Part shown: positions 5,233-31,298 of the stretch, in pieces | How the letters are laid out: the number at the start of each line of letters is the position of its first letter | How positions within the stretch are numbered: the first letter of the stretch is position 1 | From: Chitinophagaceae bacterium | Lineage (GTDB): Bacteria; Bacteroidota; Bacteroidia; Chitinophagales; Chitinophagaceae | DNA: 32,000 nucleotides | Assembly: GCA_040007815.1 (NCBI GenBank) | Contig: JBDTUH010000006.1 | Coordinates: forward strand, 267,207 to 299,206 | Reading direction: 5' to 3' | Notes under the pieces: generated by a model | The model's database searches: none | The model's input: the letters and a program-made list of their open reading frames with translations, nothing else | What the model was told of the DNA's origin: nothing | Program-made: the position numbers and the translations under genes

Positions 5233-7551
5233 ATGAGAGATAGCCATTCTTTTAAATTGCAAAAGAGATTTGCCGGAATATGCTGTATTTACTGCAGTTT
5301 ATTTTTCTTGCTTTCGGTGTCCGTACAGGCCCAGAATAACCTTGAAACCGGGCTTCCTTTTATCACTAACTACCTCGCCAAAAATTACAAGGCCATCCCG
5401 CAAACCTGGTGCATTCAACAGGATGACCGGGGTATTATGTATTTCGGCACTCAAAATTATATACTGGAATTTGATGGCGTAAAATGGAGAAAAATAGCGC
5501 CGGTAAACATTACCCCCACTACCATTTTTCGCTCATTGGTAAGATATAAAGATGGGGTGATCTATTATGGCTCCTATGGAGATTTAGGATACCTCGACAA
5601 AGACAGTCTCGGACAAACAAGAACCCAATCTTTGCTGGAAATTATCCCTGCCGCTAATCGAAATTTTTTAGATGTCTGGACAACTTATGCAGCGGACAAG
5701 GATATCTATTTTCAATCCCGCGAATACATATTCCGTTTAGGCGAAAAAAAATCAGATGGCAAGAGGGACGTCAAGGTTTGGAAACCTGCAAGTAAGTTCA
5801 TGTATGCGTTCTACGTTGACGGCGATTATTATGTTCACCAACAGGGATTAGGTCTTTACAAAATGACCAACGATTCCCTTGTGTTAGTACCAGGAAGTGA
5901 ATTCCTGGGCAAAGAAAGAATGCAGATCCTGTTACCCTTTACGGCGGGGATTAATGGAGAGAAACAATGGCTGGTTGGAATGTTCTATAGCGGCCTCTAC
6001 ATCTACAACGGTAAAACATTTCGTCCATTTCCTACCGGGGCTGATGCTATTATCAAATCGGGCACACTCTTATATAAAGGCGTGAAATTGAAAAATGGGA
6101 ATTATGCATTATCTACGACAGGAAGGGGACTTGTAATAATAGATTCGGTTGGAAAACAGGTTCAAAAAATCAACCGGGATGTCGGATTACAAGATGAATC
6201 CATTTATTCAATATACGAGGATAATAAAGCCACTTTGTGGCTGGCACTTGACAATGGAATATCGAGGGTGGAAACGGCTTCGCCACTGACGCAATTTACT
6301 CTTCAATCGGGAATAAATACCGGTGTGCTTTCTATTCAAAGGTTCAATGGAACCATTTATTTAGGTACTTCTAATGGATTACTGGCGTATGATAACACCA
6401 CAAGTCGTTTTGAACCTGTGCCAGGCATTTCTCAAAACCAGATATTCGCAATCGTGCCGGATGGCGATGAATTACTGGTGTCCGCTGATGGACTCTTTGG
6501 CATAAAAAATAAAAAAGCTTTCACCATCCGGCCTTCGGTAAGTGGCGACCTATCCTTAACATCACTTTACATATCGAAGAAACATCCTGAGATATTGTTG
6601 GGAGGTGGTCAATTTGGCGTGGTGATCTTTACAAAAGAAAAAAGTACCGGCAAATGGCATTTTGAAGGAGATATTCCCGGCATTCCCGAACAGATATGGT
6701 CTTTAACAGAAAATAAAGATGGCTCAATATGGGCCGGATCGGCGAATGGAATAACCTATAGGCTCACCCTTGCCTTTAATGAAAACGGCAGTCTCGTGCC
6801 GGGAAAGACAATCGTAAAAGAGTTTGGACCGGCGCAGGGTTTTAAAGGAGCTGGATTCGCCTCGTCCATTAAAGAAACAAGTTATTTCGTAGCTGATTCC
6901 GCTCTTTACACATTTGATGAAAACAAAAATGAGTTTGTACCTGATACTACGTTCGGAAAGTTTGTTAAGGGAGGGGCTGCGGTCGAATTTTGGATGGCCG
7001 ATGACCCGCAGGGAAGGGTTTGGATGAGAATTGGAAAAGAAACGGTACTGCTGGTTCCCAAACCGGGCGGCGGATACGAGGCGCAAAATAACCGGTTAAA
7101 TTCATTAGCAGACTATAACGTAGGAACACTCTATCCTGAAAAAAATGGCATCCTTTGGATATGTACTACGGACGGATTAATCCGCTATGATGAAAATCTT
7201 GAAAAAAACGAAGACCCCTCTTTTAAAACAATTTTACGGCATATCAGTGCGGGAAAGACAATACTTACTACAGATTCAACGGATAGCAAAAAGACATTAT
7301 CCTACAATAACAACTCATTGCGTTTCGAATACGCCGCTCCTTTTTTCTACCAGGAAAATAAAACCCAATACCAGACATGGCTTGAGGGTTTTGATAAAAG
7401 CTGGTCTGAACTCGATAATAATTATTACAAGGAATACACCAACCTGCCCGTGGGCAAATACAGGTTTCATGTAAGAGCGGTGAATATTTATGGTAACCAG
7501 GGTGAGGAGGCGGTTTACAGTTTTGAAGTTTTACCGCCCTGGTATCTTACC
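5233..7551 (+). other. Extracytoplasmic sensor region of the kinase: signal peptide plus two-component-regulator beta-propeller repeats and a Y_Y_Y domain
   Basis: Signal-like 'ICCIYCSLFFLLSVSVQAQN'. Recurring propeller-repeat signatures 'IYSIYEDNKATLWLALDNGISRV', 'IWSLTENKDGSIWAGSANGI' and 'VGTLYPEKNGILWICTTDGLIRYD'. Y_Y_Y-type block 'YQTWLEGFDKSWSEL..NYYKEYTNLPVGKYRFHVRAVN..G'. This is the architecture known from Bacteroides HTCS sensors. Confidence 0.8.
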
Positions 7552-10500
7552 TGGTGGGCTTTTTTATTGTACGCGTTAGCAGTTGCTGCCATTATCTATT
7601 TCCTTGTGCGCTGGCGCACCCGGCAATTGCATGAAAAACATCGTGAACTGGAAAAAACCGTTGCGACCCGTACCTCGGAATTAAGTCACCGGGTAGAGGA
7701 GTTGGCCGTGATCAACAGCGTACAGGAAGGACTGGTAAAAGAAATGGGCATCCAGGATATTTATGACCTGGTAGGTGAAAAGATACGTACGATATTCAAT
7801 GCACAGGTGATTGACATTGTAACCTACGACCCGAAGACCAATTTGATGGAGGATCGCTATGCTTATGAAAAAGGTGACCGTACGTTATTAGGCGCACGAG
7901 CTCCACAGGGATTCAGGAAATATGTGATAGAAAGTAAACAGGTACAGGTTATCAATGAAGGCATTCAAAAAAGAATGCAGGAATTTGACAATAAGGTATT
8001 GCTGGGTGAGCAATCAAAATCGGTATTATTTGTACCACTCATCACCGGCGGTGAAGTGAGGGGAATTATCAGTTTACAGGACATTGATAAGGAACATGCT
8101 TTTTCGGATTCAGATGTTAGTTTGCTGACAACCCTAGCCAATAGTATGAGCGTGGCGTTGGAAAGTGCCCGTCGTTTTGATGAAACCAATCGGTTGCTGA
8201 AAGAAACGGAACAACGCAATGCGGAGCTGGCTGTTATTAATAGTGTACAGGACGGATTGGTCCGTGAAATGGATATTCAAGGCATTTATTATCTCGTAGG
8301 TGAAAAGATCCGGGAAATTTTTGATGCACAGGTCATTGATATTGTTACTTACGATCGGAAGACAAACCTCATCGACGACAAGTATGCTTATGAAAAAGGA
8401 GACCGGACACTACTTGATCCCAGGGAACCTAAAGGATTCAGGAAACATATTATCGAAACATGTGAGCAATTAGTTATTAATGAGAATGCAGAAGAAATAG
8501 GCAAGCAATACGATAACCAGGTGATGGTGGGTGAGCAGCCAAAATCATTGGTGATGGTTCCGATGATCACCGCTGGCCAGGTGACGGGGATTATAAGTTT
8601 GCAGAATGTAGATCACGACAACGCATTCTCCGATTCCAATGTAAGATTGATCAATACACTGGCCAACAGCATGAGTATAGCATTGGAAAGCGCCAGGCTG
8701 TTTGACGAGACCAAACGACTGTTAAAAGAAACCGAGCAACGCAATGCCGAACTGGCTGTTATTAATAGCGTACAGGACGGGTTGGTTAGAGAAATGAATA
8801 TACAGGGGATTTATGATCTCGTGGGTGAGAAGATCCGGGAAATTTTTGATGCGCAGGTGATTGATATTGTTACCTACGATCGCAAAACAAATATGATTGA
8901 AGACCGGTATTCGTATGAAAAAGGTGATAGAACATTATTAGGTAACCGGGAACCGAAAGGATTCAGAAAGGATGTAATTGATTCATTACAACCAATAGTT
9001 GTAAATGAAGGTCTCGAAAAACATTTCGATGTAAATAACCCGATAGTAGTTGGTGATTTCCCAAAATCAGTGGTGTTTGTACCCATGGTAGTAGCCGGGG
9101 AAATAAAAGGTGTTATCAGTCTTCAGAATATAGATCATGAACATGCTTTCACCGATTCGGATGTAAGCCTGCTTACTACTTTAGCCAACAGTATGAGTGT
9201 GGCCCTGGAAAGTGCCAGGCTCTTTGATGAAACCAATCGTTTACTAAAAGAAACAGAACAAAGAAATGCAGAGCTGGCGGTTATTAATAGTGTGCAGGAA
9301 AGCCTGGTAGCGCAAATGGATATGCAGGGTATTTATGAACTGGTAGGAGAGAAAATGAGAAATATCTTTAACGCCCAGGTTATTGATATCGTCATGTATG
9401 ATCGCAATACGAATCTTATTGAAGATAAATATTCGTATGAAAAAGGCGATAGAACTTTAGTAAAGCCAAGAGAACCTAAAGGATTCAGGAAACATGTTAT
9501 TGAAACAGGTGAAATGCTTTTGCACAATGAGAATGTGGAAGCCATTTCTAAACAATTCGATAATGAAGTGCTGATCGGTGAAATGGCCAAAGCACAAATT
9601 TTCTTCCCACTGATAGCGAGCGGAAAAGTAAATGGCATCATCAGCCTTCAAAATCTTGATCATGAAAATGCTTTCTCTGAATCTGATGTCAGCCTGATCA
9701 CCACCTTAGCCAATAGTATGAGCGTGGCATTGGAAAGCGCAAGGCTTTTTGACGAAACCAACCGTTTACTAAAAGAAACCGAACAACGCAATGCGGAGCT
9801 GGCTGTTATTAATAGTGTACAGGATGGATTGGTTCGTGAAATGGATATACAGGGTATCTATTACCTGGTAGGCGAAAAGATCCGTGAAATTTTTGATGCA
9901 CAAGTAATCGATATCGTTACTTATGACAGAAAAACAAACCGGATAGAAGACAAATATTCTTATGAAAAAGGCGACAGAACTTTAGTTGGCGCCAGGGAAC
10001 CCAGCGGATTCCGGAAACATATCATTGAAACGGGTGAACAATTAGTGATTAACGAGGATGCTGAAAAAGTAGGAGAAAAATATGGTAATAGAGTAATGGT
10101 AGGAGAAGTGCCAAAATCACTGGTATTGGTTCCAATGATTACTGCAGGACAGGTTTCAGGAATCATCAGTCTTCAGAACGTAGATCATGAACATGCTTTC
10201 ACTGATTCCAATGTAAGACTGATCAACACACTTGCGACCAGCATGAGTATCGCATTGGAAAGTGCAAGATTGTTTGATGAAACCAAACGCTTACTGAAGG
10301 AAACAGAGCAACGCAATGCAGAGTTAGGTGTTATCAATAGTGTGCAGGAAGGCTTGGTAAGAGAAATGGATATACAGGGCATTTATGAACTGGTAGGTGA
10401 AAAGATAAGAGAGATTTTCAATGCGCAGGTTATCGATATTGTTACGTACGATCGCACTACCAATCTTATTGAAGACAAATACGCTTTTGAAAAAGGTGAC

Positions 10501-13500
10501 CGGACTTTATTGGGACCGAGGGAACCAAAAGGATTCCGCAAACATGTTATTGAAACCGGTGAAATGCTTTTGAACAATGAAGGTGTAGAAGAAGCCTCCC
10601 GCCAATATGATAATGAAGTGCTCATCGGTGAAATGGCTTTGTCACAGATATTCTTCCCATTAGTAGCGAGTGGAAAAGTGAATGGCATTATCAGCCTGCA
10701 GAATCTCGATCATGAACATGCTTTCTCTGATTCTGATGTTAGCCTGATCACCACTCTTGCTAATAGCATGAGCGTGGCCCTTGAAAGTGCGAGACTGTTT
10801 GATGAAACAAATCGCTTACTAAAAGAAACCGAGCAGCGTAATGATGAGCTGGCTGTTATCAACAGTGTACAGGAAAATTTGGTAGCAAAAATGGATGAGC
10901 AGGGTATTTATGAATTAGTTGGTGAAAAGATTCGCGCAGTCTTCAACGCGCAGGTCATTGACATTGTTACCTACAACAAAACGGATAATCAAATTGAAGA
11001 CAAATATTCTTATGAAAAAGGAGACAGAACTCTATTAGGTCCAAGAATGCCTAAAGGGTTTAGAAAACATGTTATCAGTTCGGGTCGTTCATTGAAAATT
11101 GACAGGGATGTAGAAAAACAAAGATTGGTATATGACAACACGGTTATTTTCGGTGATGCTGCAAAGTCATTGGTCATGGTTCCGATGTTTGCGGATAATG
11201 AAGTAATAGGTGTTATCAGTCTTCAAAACCTCGATAAAGAGAATGCTTTTTCCGATTCTGATGTAAGCCTGCTTTCTACACTCGTCAACAGTATGAGTAT
11301 CGCATTAAAGAGTGCCCGCCTGTTTGATGAAACCAATCGCCTGTTGAAAGAAACAGAACAACGTAAAGCGGAACTGGCGGTAATCAACAATGTACAGGAA
11401 GGGCTGGTAAAAGAATTCAAGTCTAAAGCTATTTATGAATTGGTAGGCGAAAAGCTTTGTGAATTATTTGATACGCAAACCGTATTGATCAGAACATTCG
11501 AGCATGAAACGGGTCTTGAAACATGGCGATATGCAATAGAAAAAGGCCAGCGCCAATACAGTGAACCGAGACCGATGATCTGGGCGAACAAACAATTGAT
11601 ACAAACCCACAAGCCGATTATCATAAACGAAAACTACCTCGAAACAGCGAAAAAATATGGCGGCAGCGGTGTAAGTATTGGCCAACCTCCTAAATCCGCT
11701 GTATTCGTGCCGATGACGGTTGGTGATGTAGTAAGAGGTTCTGTTAGTTTACAAAATGTAGATAAAGAACATGCTTTCAGCGAATCAGAATTAAGTTTAT
11801 TAACTACGCTTACAAGCAGCATGGGAGTAGCGCTGGAGAATGCCCGCCTGTTCGATGAAACCGCGCGGCTCCTTGATGAAACAAAACAAAGAGCAACCGA
11901 GTTAAGCACCGTCAATAATATCAGCCAGACATTAGCCTCGCAGGTTAATCCTGAGGATCTGATAAAACTGGTGGGAGATCAATTGAGAGATCTTTTCAAA
12001 GCAAACGTTGTATACCTTGCCCTGCTTGATCCTGAAACCAAGATCATTTATTTCCCTTATCAGCATGGAGATGATCTTACTCCCATGAAATTGGGTGAGG
12101 GTTTAACCTCGCAGGTATTACTTACCGGAAAATCACTTTTAATTAATAAAGATGTAGATGAACAAACGATCCGTTTGGGTGTCCAGCGATTGGGTGTTCC
12201 TGCCGCCTCTTACCTGGGTGTGCCTATCCCTGTAGGCGATGAGATCATTGGCGTATTAAGCGTTCAAAGCACGGAAAGTGAAAATCGCTTTAATGAAAAC
12301 GACGAACGTCTTTTGTCTACTATCGCGGCTTCGGTGGGTGTAGCTCTGAGAAAAGCACAGCTATTTGAAGAAGTGATACAGGCAAAACAGCAGGCGGAAG
12401 AAGCGAGTAAAACAGCCGATAAAGCCAACCAGGCCAAAAGTGCTTTTCTTTCTACTGTCAGTCATGAGTTAAGAACACCGCTTACGTCTGTATTGGGATT
12501 CGCCAAGATCATTAAAAAAAGATTGGAAGAAAAAATATTTCCGGTAACCAATATAAGTGATCCTAAAATTGAAAAAACGGTTCACCAGATATCGGAAAAT
12601 CTTAACGTGGTTATCTCTGAAGGAGAACGATTAACCAACCTGATCAACGAAGTATTAGATCTTGCTAAGATAGAAGCGGGTAAGATGGAATGGAATATGG
12701 AAACTGTATCCATAAAGGAAGTAGCTGACAGAGCCTTCTCCGCCACTTCTTCGTTATTTGATCAGAAAAATTTAGCGCTCAAAACCAACGTGCCGGAAAA
12801 CCTGCCGATGGTGGTAGGTGATCGTGATAAGTTGATACAAGTGATGGTCAACCTGATCTCCAATGCCGTCAAGTTTACGCCGGCAGGCACTATTACCTGC
12901 ACCATCACACGCAAAAGAAACGAGATCATTACCGGCATTACGGATACAGGTATTGGTATAGCGCCTGCCGATCATGAAGCTGTTTTTGAGCAGTTCAAAC
13001 AAGTAGTGGGGGATACATTGACTGACAAACCCAAAGGCACCGGATTAGGTCTTCCTATTTGTAAAGAAATTGTTGAACATCATAATGGCCGCATCTGGTT
13101 GGAAAGTGAATTAGGAAAAGGAAGTACTTTCTTTTTCGCTCTTCCTGTACAAAAAACGGGTGCGGCTTCGGGAGTATCCAAGCCCATTCACCTGAATGAC
13201 CTGGTAAAACAATTGAAAGAACAAATGGCGCAGTCCAGCCTGAACATGAAAGGAAAGAACGCTACTATATTGATTGTGGATGATGATGACTCTATCCGTT
13301 CTCTGCTTGACCAGGAGTTGGGTGATGCCGGCTATATCATCGAACAAGCAACCAATGGAAAAGAAGCCCTGGCAAGTGTCCGTAATCATAAGCCGGATCT
13401 TATCATTCTTGATGTGATGATGCCGGAGATGAATGGGTTTGATGTAGCGGCCATCTTGAAGAACGATCCTCAAACCATGGACATACCCATCATTGTATTA

Positions 13501-13860
13501 TCCATTGTACAGGATAAAGCCAGGGGATTCCGTATTGGCGTTGATCGATATCTCACCAAACCTATTGATACCGCGCAATTATTTACGGAAGTAGGCAGCT
13601 TATTGGAGCAAGGCAAGTCCAAGAAAAAAGTAATGGTGGTGGATGAAGATAAAACCGCAGTCGGCACATTAACTGACATACTGCAGGCAAAGGGTTACCA
13701 GGTGGTTGAATCGGATGGAAAGGAAATGGTTGAAAAAGCTATACTAAACCAACCGGATATCATTATCCTGAGCTCTGTGTTGTCAGAGCAGCATGAAATG
13801 GTTCAGTCATTGCGTTTTGAAAAAGGACTGGAAAATGTGTTGTTCCTGATTTATCAATAG
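5233..13860 (+). CDS. Giant hybrid sensor histidine kinase (2875 aa): signal peptide, periplasmic propeller + Y_Y_Y, TM, 9x GAF, HisKA-HATPase_c, REC, truncated pseudo-REC
   Basis: A single uninterrupted 8628-nt ORF. The domain motifs are listed in the sub-features below. Confidence 0.92.
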   Translation: MRDSHSFKLQKRFAGICCIYCSLFFLLSVSVQAQNNLETGLPFITNYLAKNYKAIPQTWCIQQDDRGIMYFGTQNYILEFDGVKWRKIAPVNITPTTIFRSLVRYKDGVIYYGSYGDLGYLDKDSLGQTRTQSLLEIIPAANRNFLDVWTTYAADKDIYFQSREYIFRLGEKKSDGKRDVKVWKPASKFMYAFYVDGDYYVHQQGLGLYKMTNDSLVLVPGSEFLGKERMQILLPFTAGINGEKQWLVGMFYSGLYIYNGKTFRPFPTGADAIIKSGTLLYKGVKLKNGNYALSTTGRGLVIIDSVGKQVQKINRDVGLQDESIYSIYEDNKATLWLALDNGISRVETASPLTQFTLQSGINTGVLSIQRFNGTIYLGTSNGLLAYDNTTSRFEPVPGISQNQIFAIVPDGDELLVSADGLFGIKNKKAFTIRPSVSGDLSLTSLYISKKHPEILLGGGQFGVVIFTKEKSTGKWHFEGDIPGIPEQIWSLTENKDGSIWAGSANGITYRLTLAFNENGSLVPGKTIVKEFGPAQGFKGAGFASSIKETSYFVADSALYTFDENKNEFVPDTTFGKFVKGGAAVEFWMADDPQGRVWMRIGKETVLLVPKPGGGYEAQNNRLNSLADYNVGTLYPEKNGILWICTTDGLIRYDENLEKNEDPSFKTILRHISAGKTILTTDSTDSKKTLSYNNNSLRFEYAAPFFYQENKTQYQTWLEGFDKSWSELDNNYYKEYTNLPVGKYRFHVRAVNIYGNQGEEAVYSFEVLPPWYLTWWAFLLYALAVAAIIYFLVRWRTRQLHEKHRELEKTVATRTSELSHRVEELAVINSVQEGLVKEMGIQDIYDLVGEKIRTIFNAQVIDIVTYDPKTNLMEDRYAYEKGDRTLLGARAPQGFRKYVIESKQVQVINEGIQKRMQEFDNKVLLGEQSKSVLFVPLITGGEVRGIISLQDIDKEHAFSDSDVSLLTTLANSMSVALESARRFDETNRLLKETEQRNAELAVINSVQDGLVREMDIQGIYYLVGEKIREIFDAQVIDIVTYDRKTNLIDDKYAYEKGDRTLLDPREPKGFRKHIIETCEQLVINENAEEIGKQYDNQVMVGEQPKSLVMVPMITAGQVTGIISLQNVDHDNAFSDSNVRLINTLANSMSIALESARLFDETKRLLKETEQRNAELAVINSVQDGLVREMNIQGIYDLVGEKIREIFDAQVIDIVTYDRKTNMIEDRYSYEKGDRTLLGNREPKGFRKDVIDSLQPIVVNEGLEKHFDVNNPIVVGDFPKSVVFVPMVVAGEIKGVISLQNIDHEHAFTDSDVSLLTTLANSMSVALESARLFDETNRLLKETEQRNAELAVINSVQESLVAQMDMQGIYELVGEKMRNIFNAQVIDIVMYDRNTNLIEDKYSYEKGDRTLVKPREPKGFRKHVIETGEMLLHNENVEAISKQFDNEVLIGEMAKAQIFFPLIASGKVNGIISLQNLDHENAFSESDVSLITTLANSMSVALESARLFDETNRLLKETEQRNAELAVINSVQDGLVREMDIQGIYYLVGEKIREIFDAQVIDIVTYDRKTNRIEDKYSYEKGDRTLVGAREPSGFRKHIIETGEQLVINEDAEKVGEKYGNRVMVGEVPKSLVLVPMITAGQVSGIISLQNVDHEHAFTDSNVRLINTLATSMSIALESARLFDETKRLLKETEQRNAELGVINSVQEGLVREMDIQGIYELVGEKIREIFNAQVIDIVTYDRTTNLIEDKYAFEKGDRTLLGPREPKGFRKHVIETGEMLLNNEGVEEASRQYDNEVLIGEMALSQIFFPLVASGKVNGIISLQNLDHEHAFSDSDVSLITTLANSMSVALESARLFDETNRLLKETEQRNDELAVINSVQENLVAKMDEQGIYELVGEKIRAVFNAQVIDIVTYNKTDNQIEDKYSYEKGDRTLLGPRMPKGFRKHVISSGRSLKIDRDVEKQRLVYDNTVIFGDAAKSLVMVPMFADNEVIGVISLQNLDKENAFSDSDVSLLSTLVNSMSIALKSARLFDETNRLLKETEQRKAELAVINNVQEGLVKEFKSKAIYELVGEKLCELFDTQTVLIRTFEHETGLETWRYAIEKGQRQYSEPRPMIWANKQLIQTHKPIIINENYLETAKKYGGSGVSIGQPPKSAVFVPMTVGDVVRGSVSLQNVDKEHAFSESELSLLTTLTSSMGVALENARLFDETARLLDETKQRATELSTVNNISQTLASQVNPEDLIKLVGDQLRDLFKANVVYLALLDPETKIIYFPYQHGDDLTPMKLGEGLTSQVLLTGKSLLINKDVDEQTIRLGVQRLGVPAASYLGVPIPVGDEIIGVLSVQSTESENRFNENDERLLSTIAASVGVALRKAQLFEEVIQAKQQAEEASKTADKANQAKSAFLSTVSHELRTPLTSVLGFAKIIKKRLEEKIFPVTNISDPKIEKTVHQISENLNVVISEGERLTNLINEVLDLAKIEAGKMEWNMETVSIKEVADRAFSATSSLFDQKNLALKTNVPENLPMVVGDRDKLIQVMVNLISNAVKFTPAGTITCTITRKRNEIITGITDTGIGIAPADHEAVFEQFKQVVGDTLTDKPKGTGLGLPICKEIVEHHNGRIWLESELGKGSTFFFALPVQKTGAASGVSKPIHLNDLVKQLKEQMAQSSLNMKGKNATILIVDDDDSIRSLLDQELGDAGYIIEQATNGKEALASVRNHKPDLIILDVMMPEMNGFDVAAILKNDPQTMDIPIIVLSIVQDKARGFRIGVDRYLTKPIDTAQLFTEVGSLLEQGKSKKKVMVVDEDKTAVGTLTDILQAKGYQVVESDGKEMVEKAILNQPDIIILSSVLSEQHEMVQSLRFEKGLENVLFLIYQ
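7552..7608 (+). other. Single transmembrane helix of the kinase
   Basis: 'WWAFLLYALAVAAIIYFLV' is followed by a basic stretch, 'RWRTRQLHEKHR'. Confidence 0.8.
7696..12408 (+). repeat. In-frame tandem array of nine GAF-domain coding units (174-176 codons each)
   Basis: Unit starts, anchored on the (A/E/D/T)EL(A/G/S)V(I/V)N codons, are 7696, 8221, 8746, 9268, 9793, 10318, 10843, 11368 and 11896, with the array ending at 12408. Each unit reads '..ELAVINSVQ.GLV.EM..QGIY.LVGEKIR.IF.AQVIDIVTYD..TN.IED.Y.YEKGDRTL...R.P.GFRK.VI....(variable ~30 aa)..PKS....P........G.ISLQN.D.E.AF.DSDV.L..TLANSMS.ALESARLFDETNRLLKETEQRN'. Units 8 and 9 are progressively more divergent. Confidence 0.9.
12409..13152 (+). 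other. HisKA dimerisation/phosphoacceptor plus HATPase_c catalytic core
   Basis: H-box 'FLSTVSHELRTPL' (His codon 12463-12465). N-box 'LISNAVKFTP'. G1 'DTGIGIAPADHEAVFEQF'. G2 'GTGLGLPICKEIVEHHNGRIWLESELGKGSTFFFALP'. Confidence 0.9.
13261..13608 (+). other. Receiver domain 1 (apparently intact)
   Basis: 'ILIVDDDD' acidic pocket, 'LIILDVMMPEMNG' (acceptor Asp codon 13411-13413), 'IIVLS' and 'YLTKP' (conserved Lys). Confidence 0.85.
13621..13857 (+). other. Receiver domain 2: degenerate and truncated pseudo-receiver
   Basis: 'VMVVDEDK' and 'PDIIILSSVL' align with REC1, but Ser replaces the acceptor Asp. The ORF stops right after the beta4-equivalent 'VLFLIYQ', so the Thr/Ser, the conserved Lys and alpha4-beta5-alpha5 are absent. 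Confidence 0.7.
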
Positions 13861-14223: not shown

Positions 14224-14682
14224 ATGCCAGGCACGTTTTCTCAAATATATATTCAAATCGTTTTTGCTGTAAAAGGCAGGCAAAACTTCCTTTTGCCCTC
14301 TTTTGAACAGGATGTTTATAAATATATGTTTGGTATTATTAAGGAGAAAAAAAAACCTCTTGCAGTAAATGGTATGCCAGATCATATTCACGTTTTAGTC
14401 GGGTTAAAACCCGCTATGTGCATTTCGGATCTGGTTCGAGACATAAAAAACAATTCAACAAATTTTATAAATAGAAAAAATTGGCTGAAACAAGATTTCT
14501 CCTGGCAGGAAGACTATGGCGCATTTTCTTATTCACAATCAAACTTTGGGCACGTGATTGATTATATCAAAAACCAAAAGAAACATCACCAAAAGTTTTC
14601 TTTCAAAAAAGAATATTTTTCCCTTTTAAAGAAATTTGAAATCACTTTTGAAGAAAAATATTTGTTTGAATTTTATGACTAG
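14224..14682 (+). CDS. IS200/IS605-family Y1 (HUH) transposase, RAYT-like (152 aa)
   Basis: HUH motif in 'PDHIHVLVGL'. C-terminal 'FSWQEDYGAFSYSQS....VIDYIKNQKKHH' is the catalytic-Tyr block typical of COG1943/REP-associated tyrosine transposases. The N-terminus 'YIQIVFAVKGRQ' is also typical. Confidence 0.88.
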   Translation: MPGTFSQIYIQIVFAVKGRQNFLLPSFEQDVYKYMFGIIKEKKKPLAVNGMPDHIHVLVGLKPAMCISDLVRDIKNNSTNFINRKNWLKQDFSWQEDYGAFSYSQSNFGHVIDYIKNQKKHHQKFSFKKEYFSLLKKFEITFEEKYLFEFYD

Positions 14683-26814: not shown

Positions 26815-27390
26815 ATGAAATCACTTACCGGTTTCTTTGATGCCATTTCTCCATTGAAAGAAAAAACATGGGAAGAGTTATTGCCACTGTTTAAAGAAAC
26901 CGCGCTTTCAGCTAACGAATATTTTGTAAGAGAAAATGAAGTAGCGCGAAAAATAGCTTTTTTAGAATCCGGTGTGGTCAGAGCTTTCTTCATCAACCAG
27001 GAAGGCCAGGAATACAACAAACAATTTTTTGTAGGGCCTTCCAGCATTGGTGGCTATACCTCCTTACTTACCGGTAAGGCTAATCTTATTCCCCAGCAGG
27101 CCTTAACCGATTGCAAAATATGCAGCTGCGATTTCAGGTCGTTAACGGATCGATATGATCAATATCCTGATCTTGAACGGCTGGCAAGGAAAATGGCCGA
27201 ATACTATTTTTTGGAAAAAGAAAAAAAGGAATTGGAAATTGTTTTGTTAGACGCCTCTCAGCGATACAGGATATTTCAAAAAGAATTTCCAACGCTTGAA
27301 CAGCTCATTCCTCAATACCATATCGCCTCCTATCTTGGTATCTCCGCTACGCAGTTGAGCCGGATACGTCATCAATTTGCCAATAAATAG
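26815..27390 (+). CDS. Crp/Fnr-family transcriptional regulator (cNMP-binding domain plus C-terminal HTH)
   Basis: At 191 aa, it has an N-terminal beta-roll-like region ('FVRENEVARKIAFLESGVVRAF') and the C-terminal HTH 'IASYLGISATQLSRIR'. Confidence 0.82.
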   Translation: MKSLTGFFDAISPLKEKTWEELLPLFKETALSANEYFVRENEVARKIAFLESGVVRAFFINQEGQEYNKQFFVGPSSIGGYTSLLTGKANLIPQQALTDCKICSCDFRSLTDRYDQYPDLERLARKMAEYYFLEKEKKELEIVLLDASQRYRIFQKEFPTLEQLIPQYHIASYLGISATQLSRIRHQFANK

Positions 27391-30191: not shown

Positions 30192-31298
30192 ATGTTCAGC
30201 CTTTCCGCCGAATACAAAATAAAATGGAACAAGGTTCTGACGATTATTATTGTATGGATGATCATTGCAGTGGTAATATCTATTTATGACCATATTGCAT
30301 TGCATTCAAAACTTTCCCGCGGTACACCGGCTGATTACAGCTTTTTTACCAATTTAGTATTTAATATAATCTCCGCTTTTATAGGTGGCATCCTGGGTGG
30401 AGGTTTTTTAGTTTTTTTTGTTAATGAAAAACTGAGGAGTAAGCCTTATTGGATGACGGTTCTGTTTGTCGCCATTTCTTTTATTCTGATTGTTGCTTTT
30501 ATCGCCGCCCTGCTTTCATTGATAATAGCGCCAACTATTACGGGTAAGCCGCTGATTGACCCGGAAACCCGGAAGGCGTTTTCTAACTCTTTGTTTAATT
30601 CCGTGCATCTCAAAAATATTGTTATCTGGTCAATTGTTGTGGCCCTCACACAACTGACACTACAGATTAACGACAAGTTTGGCCAGGGTATTTTATGGAA
30701 TTTTATAAAAGGCCGGTATAATATACCCCGCGAGGAAACAAGAATCTTCATGTTTGTAGATCTTATTTCGTCAACCACTATAGCAGAAAAATTAGGCAAC
30801 GAAAAATATCATCTTTTTTTGCGGGATTTTTACGCTGATATCACCAATGCCATCATTTACAACAAAGGAGAAATTTACCAGTATGTGGGCGATGAGATCG
30901 TTATTTCATGGAAACTGGATGCAGGTATTGCCAATAATCAATGCCTGAAATGTTATTTTGATATGCGTAAAACCATCATGGGGTTAAAGGAAAAGTATGA
31001 ATCCAAATATGAAATGTCGCCTGATTTCAAAGCAGGTCTGCACTATGGGAAAGTGATAGCGGGTGAAATTGGCATCATCAAAAGAGATATCACTTTTTCA
31101 GGTGATGTGCTGAATACAGCCTCCCGTATTCAAAGCAAATGCAATGAGTACAAGGTGAAGATCCTCAGCTCGGATGAATTGTTGCAAAAACTTCCTTACG
31201 AAAACCAGTATAAGCGAATTCAAATTGGTGATATTGAACTGAAGGGAAAAGAAACCAAAGTGCCGCTGAGTACACTGGAAATAATTGAACATGTTTGA
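30192..31298 (+). CDS. Membrane-anchored class III adenylate/guanylate cyclase
   Basis: About 4-5 N-terminal hydrophobic helices, then the cyclase core 'IFMFVDLISSTTIAE', 'IYQYVGDEIVISW' and 'ITFSGDVLNTASRIQ'. Confidence 0.85.
   Translation: MFSLSAEYKIKWNKVLTIIIVWMIIAVVISIYDHIALHSKLSRGTPADYSFFTNLVFNIISAFIGGILGGGFLVFFVNEKLRSKPYWMTVLFVAISFILIVAFIAALLSLIIAPTITGKPLIDPETRKAFSNSLFNSVHLKNIVIWSIVVALTQLTLQINDKFGQGILWNFIKGRYNIPREETRIFMFVDLISSTTIAEKLGNEKYHLFLRDFYADITNAIIYNKGEIYQYVGDEIVISWKLDAGIANNQCLKCYFDMRKTIMGLKEKYESKYEMSPDFKAGLHYGKVIAGEIGIIKRDITFSGDVLNTASRIQSKCNEYKVKILSSDELLQKLPYENQYKRIQIGDIELKGKETKVPLSTLEIIEHV

Follow-up and report, generated by a model that had tools for sequence, protein, structure and literature searches.

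Here we describe a 2875-residue hybrid sensor histidine kinase in which nine consecutive GAF units stand between the membrane and the kinase core. Its gene lies in a 32,000-nucleotide stretch of DNA from a Chitinophagaceae bacterium (contig JBDTUH010000006.1 of assembly GCA_040007815.1, positions 267,207 to 299,206), hereafter the window, and nine is one value in a series from 1 to 14 units within one orthologous family. The length of the junctions between units is nearly invariant in this family, and the kinase gene keeps company with genes for a stand-alone CheY-like response regulator and a class III nucleotidyl cyclase. With slightly better than even confidence, we read the array as a functional, dimeric, helix-coupled transmission and integration module whose output passes via the regulator to the cyclase.

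The GAF array and its junctions

Pfam called GAF, Reg_prop, Y_Y_Y, HisKA, HATPase_c and Response_reg on the kinase translation (Table 1). Nine stretches were called for both GAF_2 (E 9.6e-115) and GAF (E 2.4e-87), the GAF-superfamily profiles concerned being PF13185, PF01590 and PF13492, and no domain other than GAF was called between the second transmembrane segment (TM2) and HisKA. A preliminary description of this DNA, made from the sequence alone, had proposed just such an arrangement, with units of 174-176 amino acids (aa); the array it placed at nucleotides 7696-12408 stands, with boundaries that we now put at 7699-12423. Counted from the motif ELAVINSVQ, the units (U1 to U9) start at aa 823, 998, 1173, 1347, 1522, 1697, 1872, 2047 and 2223 and measure 175, 175, 174, 175, 175, 175, 175, 176 and 175 aa. 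U1-U7 are 65-87% identical to one another in protein sequence, and U8 and U9 are about 50% and 28% identical to the others, respectively.

As the kinase has two hydrophobic segments (aa 11-34 and 770-795), the ~735 residues after the signal segment should be periplasmic and everything past aa 795 cytoplasmic. The periplasmic module had been likened to that of the hybrid two-component systems (HTCS) of Bacteroides. Indeed, besides the Pfam calls, its best PDB sequence matches are the HTCS sensor domains 3ott/3va6, 4a2l and 3v9f. The kinase has intact H, N, G1 and G2 boxes and an intact receiver Asp. In the half-receiver tail that follows the receiver, Ser replaces the phospho-Asp (DIIILS), and homologues keep this tail up to the last residue.

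Structure predictions point to helices that run unbroken from one domain into the next. An AlphaFold2 (AF2) model of U2-U3, built on eight aligned rows of di-units from the window itself (mean pLDDT 79.7), contains one continuous helix of 53 residues (aa 1134-1186) from alpha5 of U2 to alpha1 of U3. A second model, of aa 2179-2660 (32-row alignment, pLDDT 74.5), has a 52-residue helix at the U8-U9 junction and an 84-residue helix that leads from alpha5 of GAF9 through His2411 into the first DHp helix, followed by DHp helix 2 and the ATPase domain. U2, U3 and U9 are all predicted to have the GAF order a1-a2-b1-b2-a3-b3-a4-b4-b5-a5. With Foldseek, the di-unit model matched PDE2A (3ibj, E 5e-16), PDE5A (3lfv), PDE6 and CyaB2 (1ykd) along its whole length, over 366-383 columns, and the comparison with the connecting helices of tandem-GAF proteins made in the preliminary description is thereby strengthened.

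A near-identical segment had also been claimed for every junction. Seven of the eight inter-GAF junctions indeed match the 29-aa sequence SARLFDETNRLLKETEQRNAELAVINSVQ with no more than two mismatches; the claim does not extend to U8/U9, which is more diverged (~17/29 identical), nor in full to the TM2-U1 junction, which has the common C-terminal part only (ELAVINSVQ, with RVE before it). Spacing is kept strictly among family members. Of 504 junctions, 502 have a linker span (ARLFDET...EL.VIN) of exactly 25 aa, and of 561 compared for the unit period, 528 show 175-177 aa. The distance from TM2 to GAF1 (PPW to the first EL.VIN) is 55 aa in 101 of 103 homologues, and one-GAF forms keep it too. 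The last A.LFEE-type motif found by regular expression lies 35 aa from the H-box in 72 of the 117 proteins; for the others the expression most likely picked an earlier unit.

The pattern of selection agrees with this picture. Between the window and the closest orthologous units of its closest ten-unit relative (L026, contig CAWDXH010000005.1), omega, the ratio of non-synonymous to synonymous divergence (dN/dS), was 0.005 for the linker helix, 0.019 for the unit core and 0.063 for unit positions 80-118, values that are approximate, as dS was saturated and the tail of L026 past a frame break (see below) was excluded. Column entropy gives the same ranking of constraint, with the linker above the core and the core above positions 80-118. 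Since linker omega is the lowest and the entropy ranking agrees, the geometry of the helical connection is the most protected feature of the array, and this fits register-dependent coupling.

A family with 1 to 14 GAF units

Our homologue search matched 174 proteins, of which 120 are listed, and 121 arrays form the basis of the unit counts. All 120 listed homologues have the same domain set, and their lengths step by ~175 aa. A unit hidden Markov model counted 2-14 GAFs per listed protein, with a mode of 4-5, and seven proteins other than that of the window have nine (six of them full length). Scanning genomes for the periplasmic domain returned 38 loci, nearly all Chitinophagaceae-like, in genera including Ginsengibacter, Ferruginibacter, Terrimonas, Flavisolibacter and Flavihumibacter; judged by the distance between N- and C-terminal matches, these loci carry 1, 3, 4, 5, 7, 8, 10, 11 or 14 units. 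Family members share the N-terminal sensor, a last GAF of type C, the kinase core, the receiver and the half-receiver tail, all of which the window protein has.

We extracted and compared 682 units. The nearest neighbour of a unit holds the same position in 104 of 121 cases for first units, 110 of 120 for penultimate units and 118 of 121 for last units; among 320 middle units, just 10 have a paralogue of the same protein as nearest neighbour. On account of this positional orthology and the scarcity of paralogue-closest units, the array must be old and not homogenised by concerted evolution; on the same count of 10 in 320 we also reject recent amplification. Clustering separated unit types A to F. 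Of 121 arrays, 118 end in a type C unit, and the penultimate place is usually taken by type A. U1-U7 of the window belong to type B, and the window array, BBBBBBBAC, has the longest run of B among the full-length proteins listed. Within the window, the likeness of U5 to U2 (87%) and of U6 to U4 (86%) points to a block duplication in this lineage.

Copy number changes quickly. It differs in 7 of 27 nearest-neighbour pairs at >=95% C-terminal identity, in 10 of 16 at 90-95% and in 15 of 17 at 85-90%, and relatives whose orthologous units are 90-95% identical have 6, 7, 9 or 10 units. Because unit length and linker are so uniform, unequal recombination can add, remove or rearrange entire units with the register kept, and such whole-unit exchange would account for the series of 1 to 14 copies among orthologues. 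One-GAF orthologues are of two kinds: that of locus L028 (12300-13200) has a pure C-type unit, and that of L033, from Flavihumibacter solisilvae (12200-13100), is chimeric, with an A/B-type alpha1 (ELAVINNVQDALVREMDLQA) on the body of a C-type unit. The latter looks, from its sequence, like a deletion product, the recombinational collapse of a longer array. Some listed proteins with C-termini ~92-100% identical also differ in their arrays (P0005 and P0006, BBBAEBAAC versus BBBABEAAC; P0011 and P0021, 7 versus 6 units; P0003 and P0106, 10 versus 3), either through very recent shuffling or through mis-joins at conserved linker DNA in short-read metagenome assemblies. Across loci L001-L036 the sensor is 46-67% identical, as against 72-86% for kinase core plus receiver and 81-92% for the CheY-like regulator. 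Sensor identity does not track the flanking genes (in L011 the neighbours are 83-89% identical and the sensor 59%), and these comparisons suggest fast evolution or domain exchange in the periplasmic sensor.

Could the nine-fold array be a repeat mis-assembly, or the gene a pseudogene? Exact direct repeats of up to 44 nt occur in the linker-coding DNA, the exact 2875-aa protein was not found in public collections, and the long-read locus L026 has a frame break in unit 6 (kinase ~aa 1846), where TTLS*QHECS replaces TTLANSMSVA and truncates the called protein P0059. That break is either a sequencing indel in a metagenome-assembled genome or a genuine pseudogene. In the window, however, the 8.6-kb open reading frame (ORF) is uninterrupted, the units are only 42-80% identical at the nucleotide level, and dS between units is saturated with dN/dS of 0.02-0.12 for U1-U6 pairs (0.33 for U7 versus the type-A U8). 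Such divergence under strong purifying selection argues that the array is not an assembly artefact. Arrays of 7-14 units are also known from the genomes of isolates (Terrimonas, Flavisolibacter ginsengisoli DSM 18119) and from contigs 0.4-1.8 Mb long, and there are other nine-unit proteins, as given above. We therefore consider an artefact or pseudogene extremely improbable. Tandem Repeats Finder reported nothing across the array because the 525-nt period exceeds its 500-nt maximum; motif positions, MAFFT alignment and a repeat search bring out the repeat instead.

The lability of copy number among close relatives suggests that single units are dispensable, and this would suit GAFs that bind nothing and form a passive spacer: a rigid ruler, or a scaffold for oligomerisation or docking, that holds the kinase core well away from the membrane and whose copy number tunes its reach. 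That the linker helix is the most conserved part of the unit and the pocket-side positions 80-118 the least would suit it too. Yet the beta1-beta2-alpha3 region carries conserved, type-specific polar motifs (YEKGDRT, GFRKH), a core omega of 0.019 is more constraint than a pure spacer needs, and first, penultimate and last units are kept as distinct positional orthologues. A passive role is thus, in our view, quite doubtful.

The preliminary description had further noted a variable segment of ~30 aa after GFRK.VI and taken it to mean different ligand pockets mounted on a common scaffold. The segment is real. By column entropy it covers unit positions 80-118, with 1.3-2.7 bits among B-type units, where the rest of the unit mostly has 0.2-0.9 bits and a few short loops, such as 45-48 and 68-70, come to ~2 bits. 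It spans the end of alpha3, beta3, alpha4, the following loop and beta4, and the corresponding side closes the GAF pocket in Lcd1 (PMC11800159, which treats the helices in general terms and lists no ligand contacts). Together with the presence of at least six unit types across the family, this location is what speaks for a multi-input integrator, in which each unit would offer a different pocket and up to nine cytoplasmic cues would be read. The rest of the evidence speaks against it. Seven of the nine units here are of one type, with a common conserved motif, YEKGDRT...GFRKH. Positions 80-118 drift between orthologues too (82-87% identical where the core is 88-99%), and at equal core identity they are equally divergent between paralogues and between units of different proteins. 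Given an omega of 0.063 these positions are constrained and not diversifying, and they seem to behave as a faster-evolving surface region. The idea of different pockets is therefore not supported, and we regard a nine-cue integrator as very unlikely.

Downstream genes and the proposed output

The regulator gene lies between kinase and cyclase in 23 loci, whatever the number of GAFs; its product is 81-92% identical and is the best conserved of the three cassette proteins. Wherever a related locus extends far enough, the cyclase gene is found 3' of the kinase gene (regulator/cyclase synteny: 23-24 loci). An AraC-type output had been reported as absent from the kinase, and neither HTH_AraC nor HTH_18 gave a match in it at E<=0.01. 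The conserved CheY-like regulator and cyclase downstream, as the likely output, explain this absence, and, judged by synteny, a cyclic nucleotide produced via the stand-alone regulator is the likely output of the system.

The catalytic motifs of the cyclase lie near aa 350-440, and the metal-binding motifs FTDIRD and GDA are present. Its purine-specifying residue is Gln, where the guanylyl cyclase Cya2 (2w01) has Glu and an engineered adenylyl variant of Cya2 (6fht) has Lys. Gln was found in all 20 orthologues in which the motif could be located, with Thr (15), Ala (3) or Cys (1) at the second position; the window cyclase has Gln/Thr. This departs from the canonical purine pairs (Lys/Asp or Lys/Thr for ATP, Glu/Cys or Glu/Gly for GTP), and with Gln in place of Lys or Glu the substrate and product of the enzyme are uncertain. 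We also considered that the cyclase is itself a response regulator, and rejected this because it lacks a receiver domain and no family is matched by its N-terminal 118 aa.

An insertion sequence (IS) at ~13.93-14.72 kb splits kinase from regulator in the window, where relatives have a spacer of ~80 nt, and none of the 38 related loci has the element. Upstream of its transposase ORF are the G+C-rich, hairpin-like motifs CACCCCTTCGGGGT and AACCCCGAAGGGGTGAC. The neighbourhood comprises a beta-lactamase-fold protein, a DUF418 protein, the regulator, the cyclase, a GDSL lipase and an E1 dehydrogenase; no SusC/SusD or polysaccharide utilisation locus (PUL) is part of it. Some 10-15 kb downstream are genes for a Crp-like cyclic nucleoside monophosphate (cNMP)-binding protein of 191 aa (26815-27390, +) and a second class III cyclase of 368 aa (30192-31298, +). 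Genes for cyclic-nucleotide signalling are numerous in this part of the genome. NCBIfam gave no model above cutoff for the kinase, the CheY-like regulator or the cyclase, and Rfam at the gathering threshold had no match in the window.

In the mechanism that we favour, the kinase would most likely be a parallel homodimer. The connections from TM2 to GAF1, from GAF to GAF and from GAF9 to the DHp domain would be unbroken helices of fixed length, and the junction helices would form a continuous spine, as in the tandem GAFs of PDE2A and CyaB2. The array would then act as a register-preserving module for transmission and integration. The state of the propeller/Y_Y_Y sensor and the occupancy of the GAF pockets would pass along the spine and set the balance of kinase and phosphatase activity at His2411; as seven of the pockets are of one type, they would probably read one ligand. 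The output would be non-transcriptional. A phosphoryl group would reach the adjacent CheY-like regulator, directly or in competition with the kinase's own receiver, and the regulator would in turn control the adjacent GAF-cyclase, so that the cassette would turn an envelope signal into a cyclic-nucleotide signal.

Several points weigh against this proposal. The AF2 models are of monomers only, and we infer the parallel dimer and the rod geometry. Hydrophobic periodicity over 502 junction helices peaks at 3.3 and 4.0, with no clean 3.5, and the core positions are polar; as the heptad signal is not clean, we do not claim a canonical coiled coil. We know of no experimental precedent for signalling through 9-14 domains, over tens of nanometres. 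On the output side, it is solely the adjacency of their genes that suggests a coupling of regulator to cyclase. The N-terminal 118 aa of the cyclase match no Pfam family and the protein has no receiver domain, no histidine phosphotransfer (HPt) domain was found, and the kinase has a receiver of its own. In the window, the IS insertion may uncouple expression of regulator and cyclase from that of the kinase. Finally, NKFDE-type motifs are a signature of cNMP-binding GAFs, and inspection of the B units revealed no obvious motif of this kind.

A more specific possibility is that the array is mainly a multivalent receptor for the cyclic nucleotide made by the adjacent cyclase, so that the product, bound by the seven like units, feeds back on the kinase and copy number sets gain or cooperativity. 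CyaB1 offers a parallel, being activated by cAMP through its GAF-B. A GAF-bearing cyclase is syntenic in every locus, and the closest solved single GAF is the cAMP-bound Lcd1 domain 5w10, which is the best match both by fold (Foldseek, TMt 0.76) and by sequence among PDB entries (E 6.6e-6). The nearest tandem folds are likewise the cNMP-binding GAFs of PDEs and CyaB2, the motif common to seven units suggests one ligand, and the Crp-like protein and second cyclase are also encoded in the window. However, cNMP binders dominate the GAFs in PDB, which makes a nearest match weak evidence, and identity to the PDB fold matches is just 13-21%. The B units also lack the F-x3-DE-x-TG stretch, as judged by inspection of a phmmer alignment to Lcd1, and the cyclase substrate is uncertain, with Gln at the Lys/Glu specificity position. 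Feedback of this kind is possible though unlikely, and it is compatible with the helix-coupled module that we prefer, as a specific choice of its ligand.

A bolder extension, which we put forward as doubtful, is that poly-GAF arrays are allosteric 'wires' of evolvable length, made of identical bistable GAF dimers joined by helices of fixed register, in which each unit also reads the level of the possibly non-canonical cyclic nucleotide of the Gln/Thr cyclase and copy number serves as a rapidly evolving control of feedback gain. If true, a periplasmic signal would be carried tens of nanometres to the kinase core, and the culturable Chitinophagaceae series would be a ready system for measuring the reach of a conformational signal along serial sensor domains and the manner in which it travels.

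Table 1. Coordinates of the kinase, its domains and the downstream genes (nucleotide positions in the window)
Feature	Position	Strand	Basis
Hybrid sensor histidine kinase, 2875 aa	5233..13860	+	ORF uninterrupted (8.6 kb), intact
Hydrophobic N-terminal segment, aa 11-34, signal peptide or TM1	5263..5334	+	Hydropathy scan
Reg_prop beta-propeller/Y_Y_Y periplasmic sensor, ~aa 34-771	5332..7545	+	Pfam Reg_prop, Y_Y_Y; PDB matches
TM2, aa 770-795	7540..7617	+	Hydropathy scan
Juxtamembrane segment, TM2 to alpha1 of GAF1, without HAMP	7618..7698	+	No Pro/Gly, no Pfam domain; helicity inferred
GAF unit 1, type B, with C-terminal linker helix	7699..8223	+	
GAF unit 2, type B; 87% aa identity to U5	8224..8748	+	
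GAF unit 3, type B, 174 aa	8749..9270	+	
GAF unit 4, type B; 86% aa identity to U6	9271..9795	+	
GAF unit 5, type B	9796..10320	+	
GAF unit 6, type B	10321..10845	+	
GAF unit 7, type B	10846..11370	+	
GAF unit 8, type A, usual penultimate type in family	11371..11898	+	
GAF unit 9, type C, last in 118/121 arrays	11899..12423	+	
HisKA/DHp, aa 2401-2483; H-box SHELRTP, His2411 at 12463-12465	12433..12681	+	Pfam
HATPase_c, aa 2529-2640; N, G1, G2 boxes present	12817..13152	+	Pfam
Response_reg receiver, aa 2679-2786; DLIILD motif, Asp2727	13267..13590	+	Pfam
C-terminal half-receiver tail, kinase aa 2789-2875	13597..13857	+	Sub-threshold match to REC profile positions 1-52
IS200/IS605-family Y1 transposase ORF	14224..14682	+	NCBIfam NF033573, 57 bits vs cutoff 55
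Stand-alone CheY-like response regulator, 125 aa	14740..15117	+	Pfam Response_reg, E 5.7e-27
GAF + class III nucleotidyl cyclase, 559 aa	15137..16816	+	Pfam, Guanylate_cyc E 2.2e-19

Wider distribution and comparison with known systems

The preliminary description did not recognise the architecture as a characterised one. This holds for the literature, in that searches on poly- or multi-GAF proteins, Reg_prop plus GAF and Bacteroidetes tandem GAFs returned only cyanobacteriochrome papers and general reviews, and no paper describing this architecture; it does not hold for sequence databases, where poly-GAF kinases are common. A nine-unit profile searched against 1.84 billion cluster representatives matched 5,933 proteins at E<=1e-30. 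In the top 150, almost every protein has 4-15 full-length unit matches, linker included, which is why we call such kinases common in sequence space; only two of the 150 have the window's sensor. Most of the first 70 that we tabulated start almost directly with GAFs or have another N-terminal region of ~650-700 aa. Poly-GAF kinases elsewhere occur in Actinomycetota, Chloroflexota and Balneola/Gracilimonas, have kinase cores 23-41% identical to that of the window and match profile positions 1-174. Named examples (Gracilimonas/Balneola WP_367731667.1, Gaiellaceae MGZ4401498.1 and Anaerolineales HLO13445.1) have 5-15 copies upstream of HisKA/HATPase_c, are uncharacterised and are annotated just as 'GAF domain-containing protein'; by Pfam, one has 10 GAFs and a kinase, and another 12 GAFs with PAS, kinase and receiver. 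Many of the poly-GAF proteins outside the family (among P0121-P0268) appear to be soluble kinases that start with the array.

How a signal crosses helix-linked GAF, PAS or HAMP domains is a long-standing question, mostly studied with one or two domains. The present family is a natural length series, with the same sensor, core and partners and with 1, 3, 4, 5, 7, 8, 9, 10, 11 or 14 GAFs. Since several members come from organisms in culture (Terrimonas, Flavisolibacter ginsengisoli DSM 18119 and Flavihumibacter solisilvae), the dependence of coupling on register, its range and its cooperativity are directly testable. The system would also link an HTCS-type envelope sensor to cyclic-nucleotide output, and not to AraC-type transcription.

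Among known systems, the HTCS of Bacteroides (BT4663; PDB 4a2l) have the same Reg_prop/Y_Y_Y sensor, the same single-pass link to HisKA-HATPase_c and a fused receiver. Unlike them, the window kinase has no C-terminal AraC helix-turn-helix and carries nine GAFs between membrane and kinase, and its partners are a CheY-like regulator and a cyclase instead of SusC/SusD or a PUL. Strict HTCS membership is thus ruled out by the missing AraC domain and PUL. Multi-GAF cyanobacteriochromes likewise contain long serial GAF arrays in one signalling protein, of up to about seven GAFs according to the literature and in some cases upstream of a histidine kinase. They are, however, confined to cyanobacteria and bind bilin through a conserved Cys, whereas the host here is Chitinophagaceae-like and there is no Cys in U1, U3-U7 or U9 and a single one in U2 and in U8, at different, unconserved positions. 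Bilin binding, and with it a cyanobacteriochrome, is ruled out for want of a conserved Cys. The CyaC-type cyclases of Spirulina and Anabaena combine receiver, GAF-like, kinase and class III cyclase domains in a single polypeptide. Their logic is that proposed for the present cassette, with two-component phosphotransfer controlling a class III cyclase, and they differ from it in that the functions are here divided among three genes, with a membrane-bound kinase, an extracytoplasmic sensor and a poly-GAF array.

The closest likeness is to the tandem GAFs of PDE2A, PDE5A, PDE6 and PDE10A and of CyaB1 and CyaB2. In these, too, one long helix from alpha5 to the next alpha1 joins the GAFs, and the GAFs stand directly upstream of a helix-coupled catalytic output. 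They have two GAFs where the window kinase has nine, identity is only 13-18%, their cAMP/cGMP pockets are characterised whereas such a signature was not recognised here, and the output domain on the same polypeptide is a phosphodiesterase or cyclase, as opposed to a histidine kinase. By analogy, the kinase would work most like these PDE and CyaB tandem GAFs, extended to nine units, and we regard it as an uncharacterised variant of known tandem-GAF signalling.

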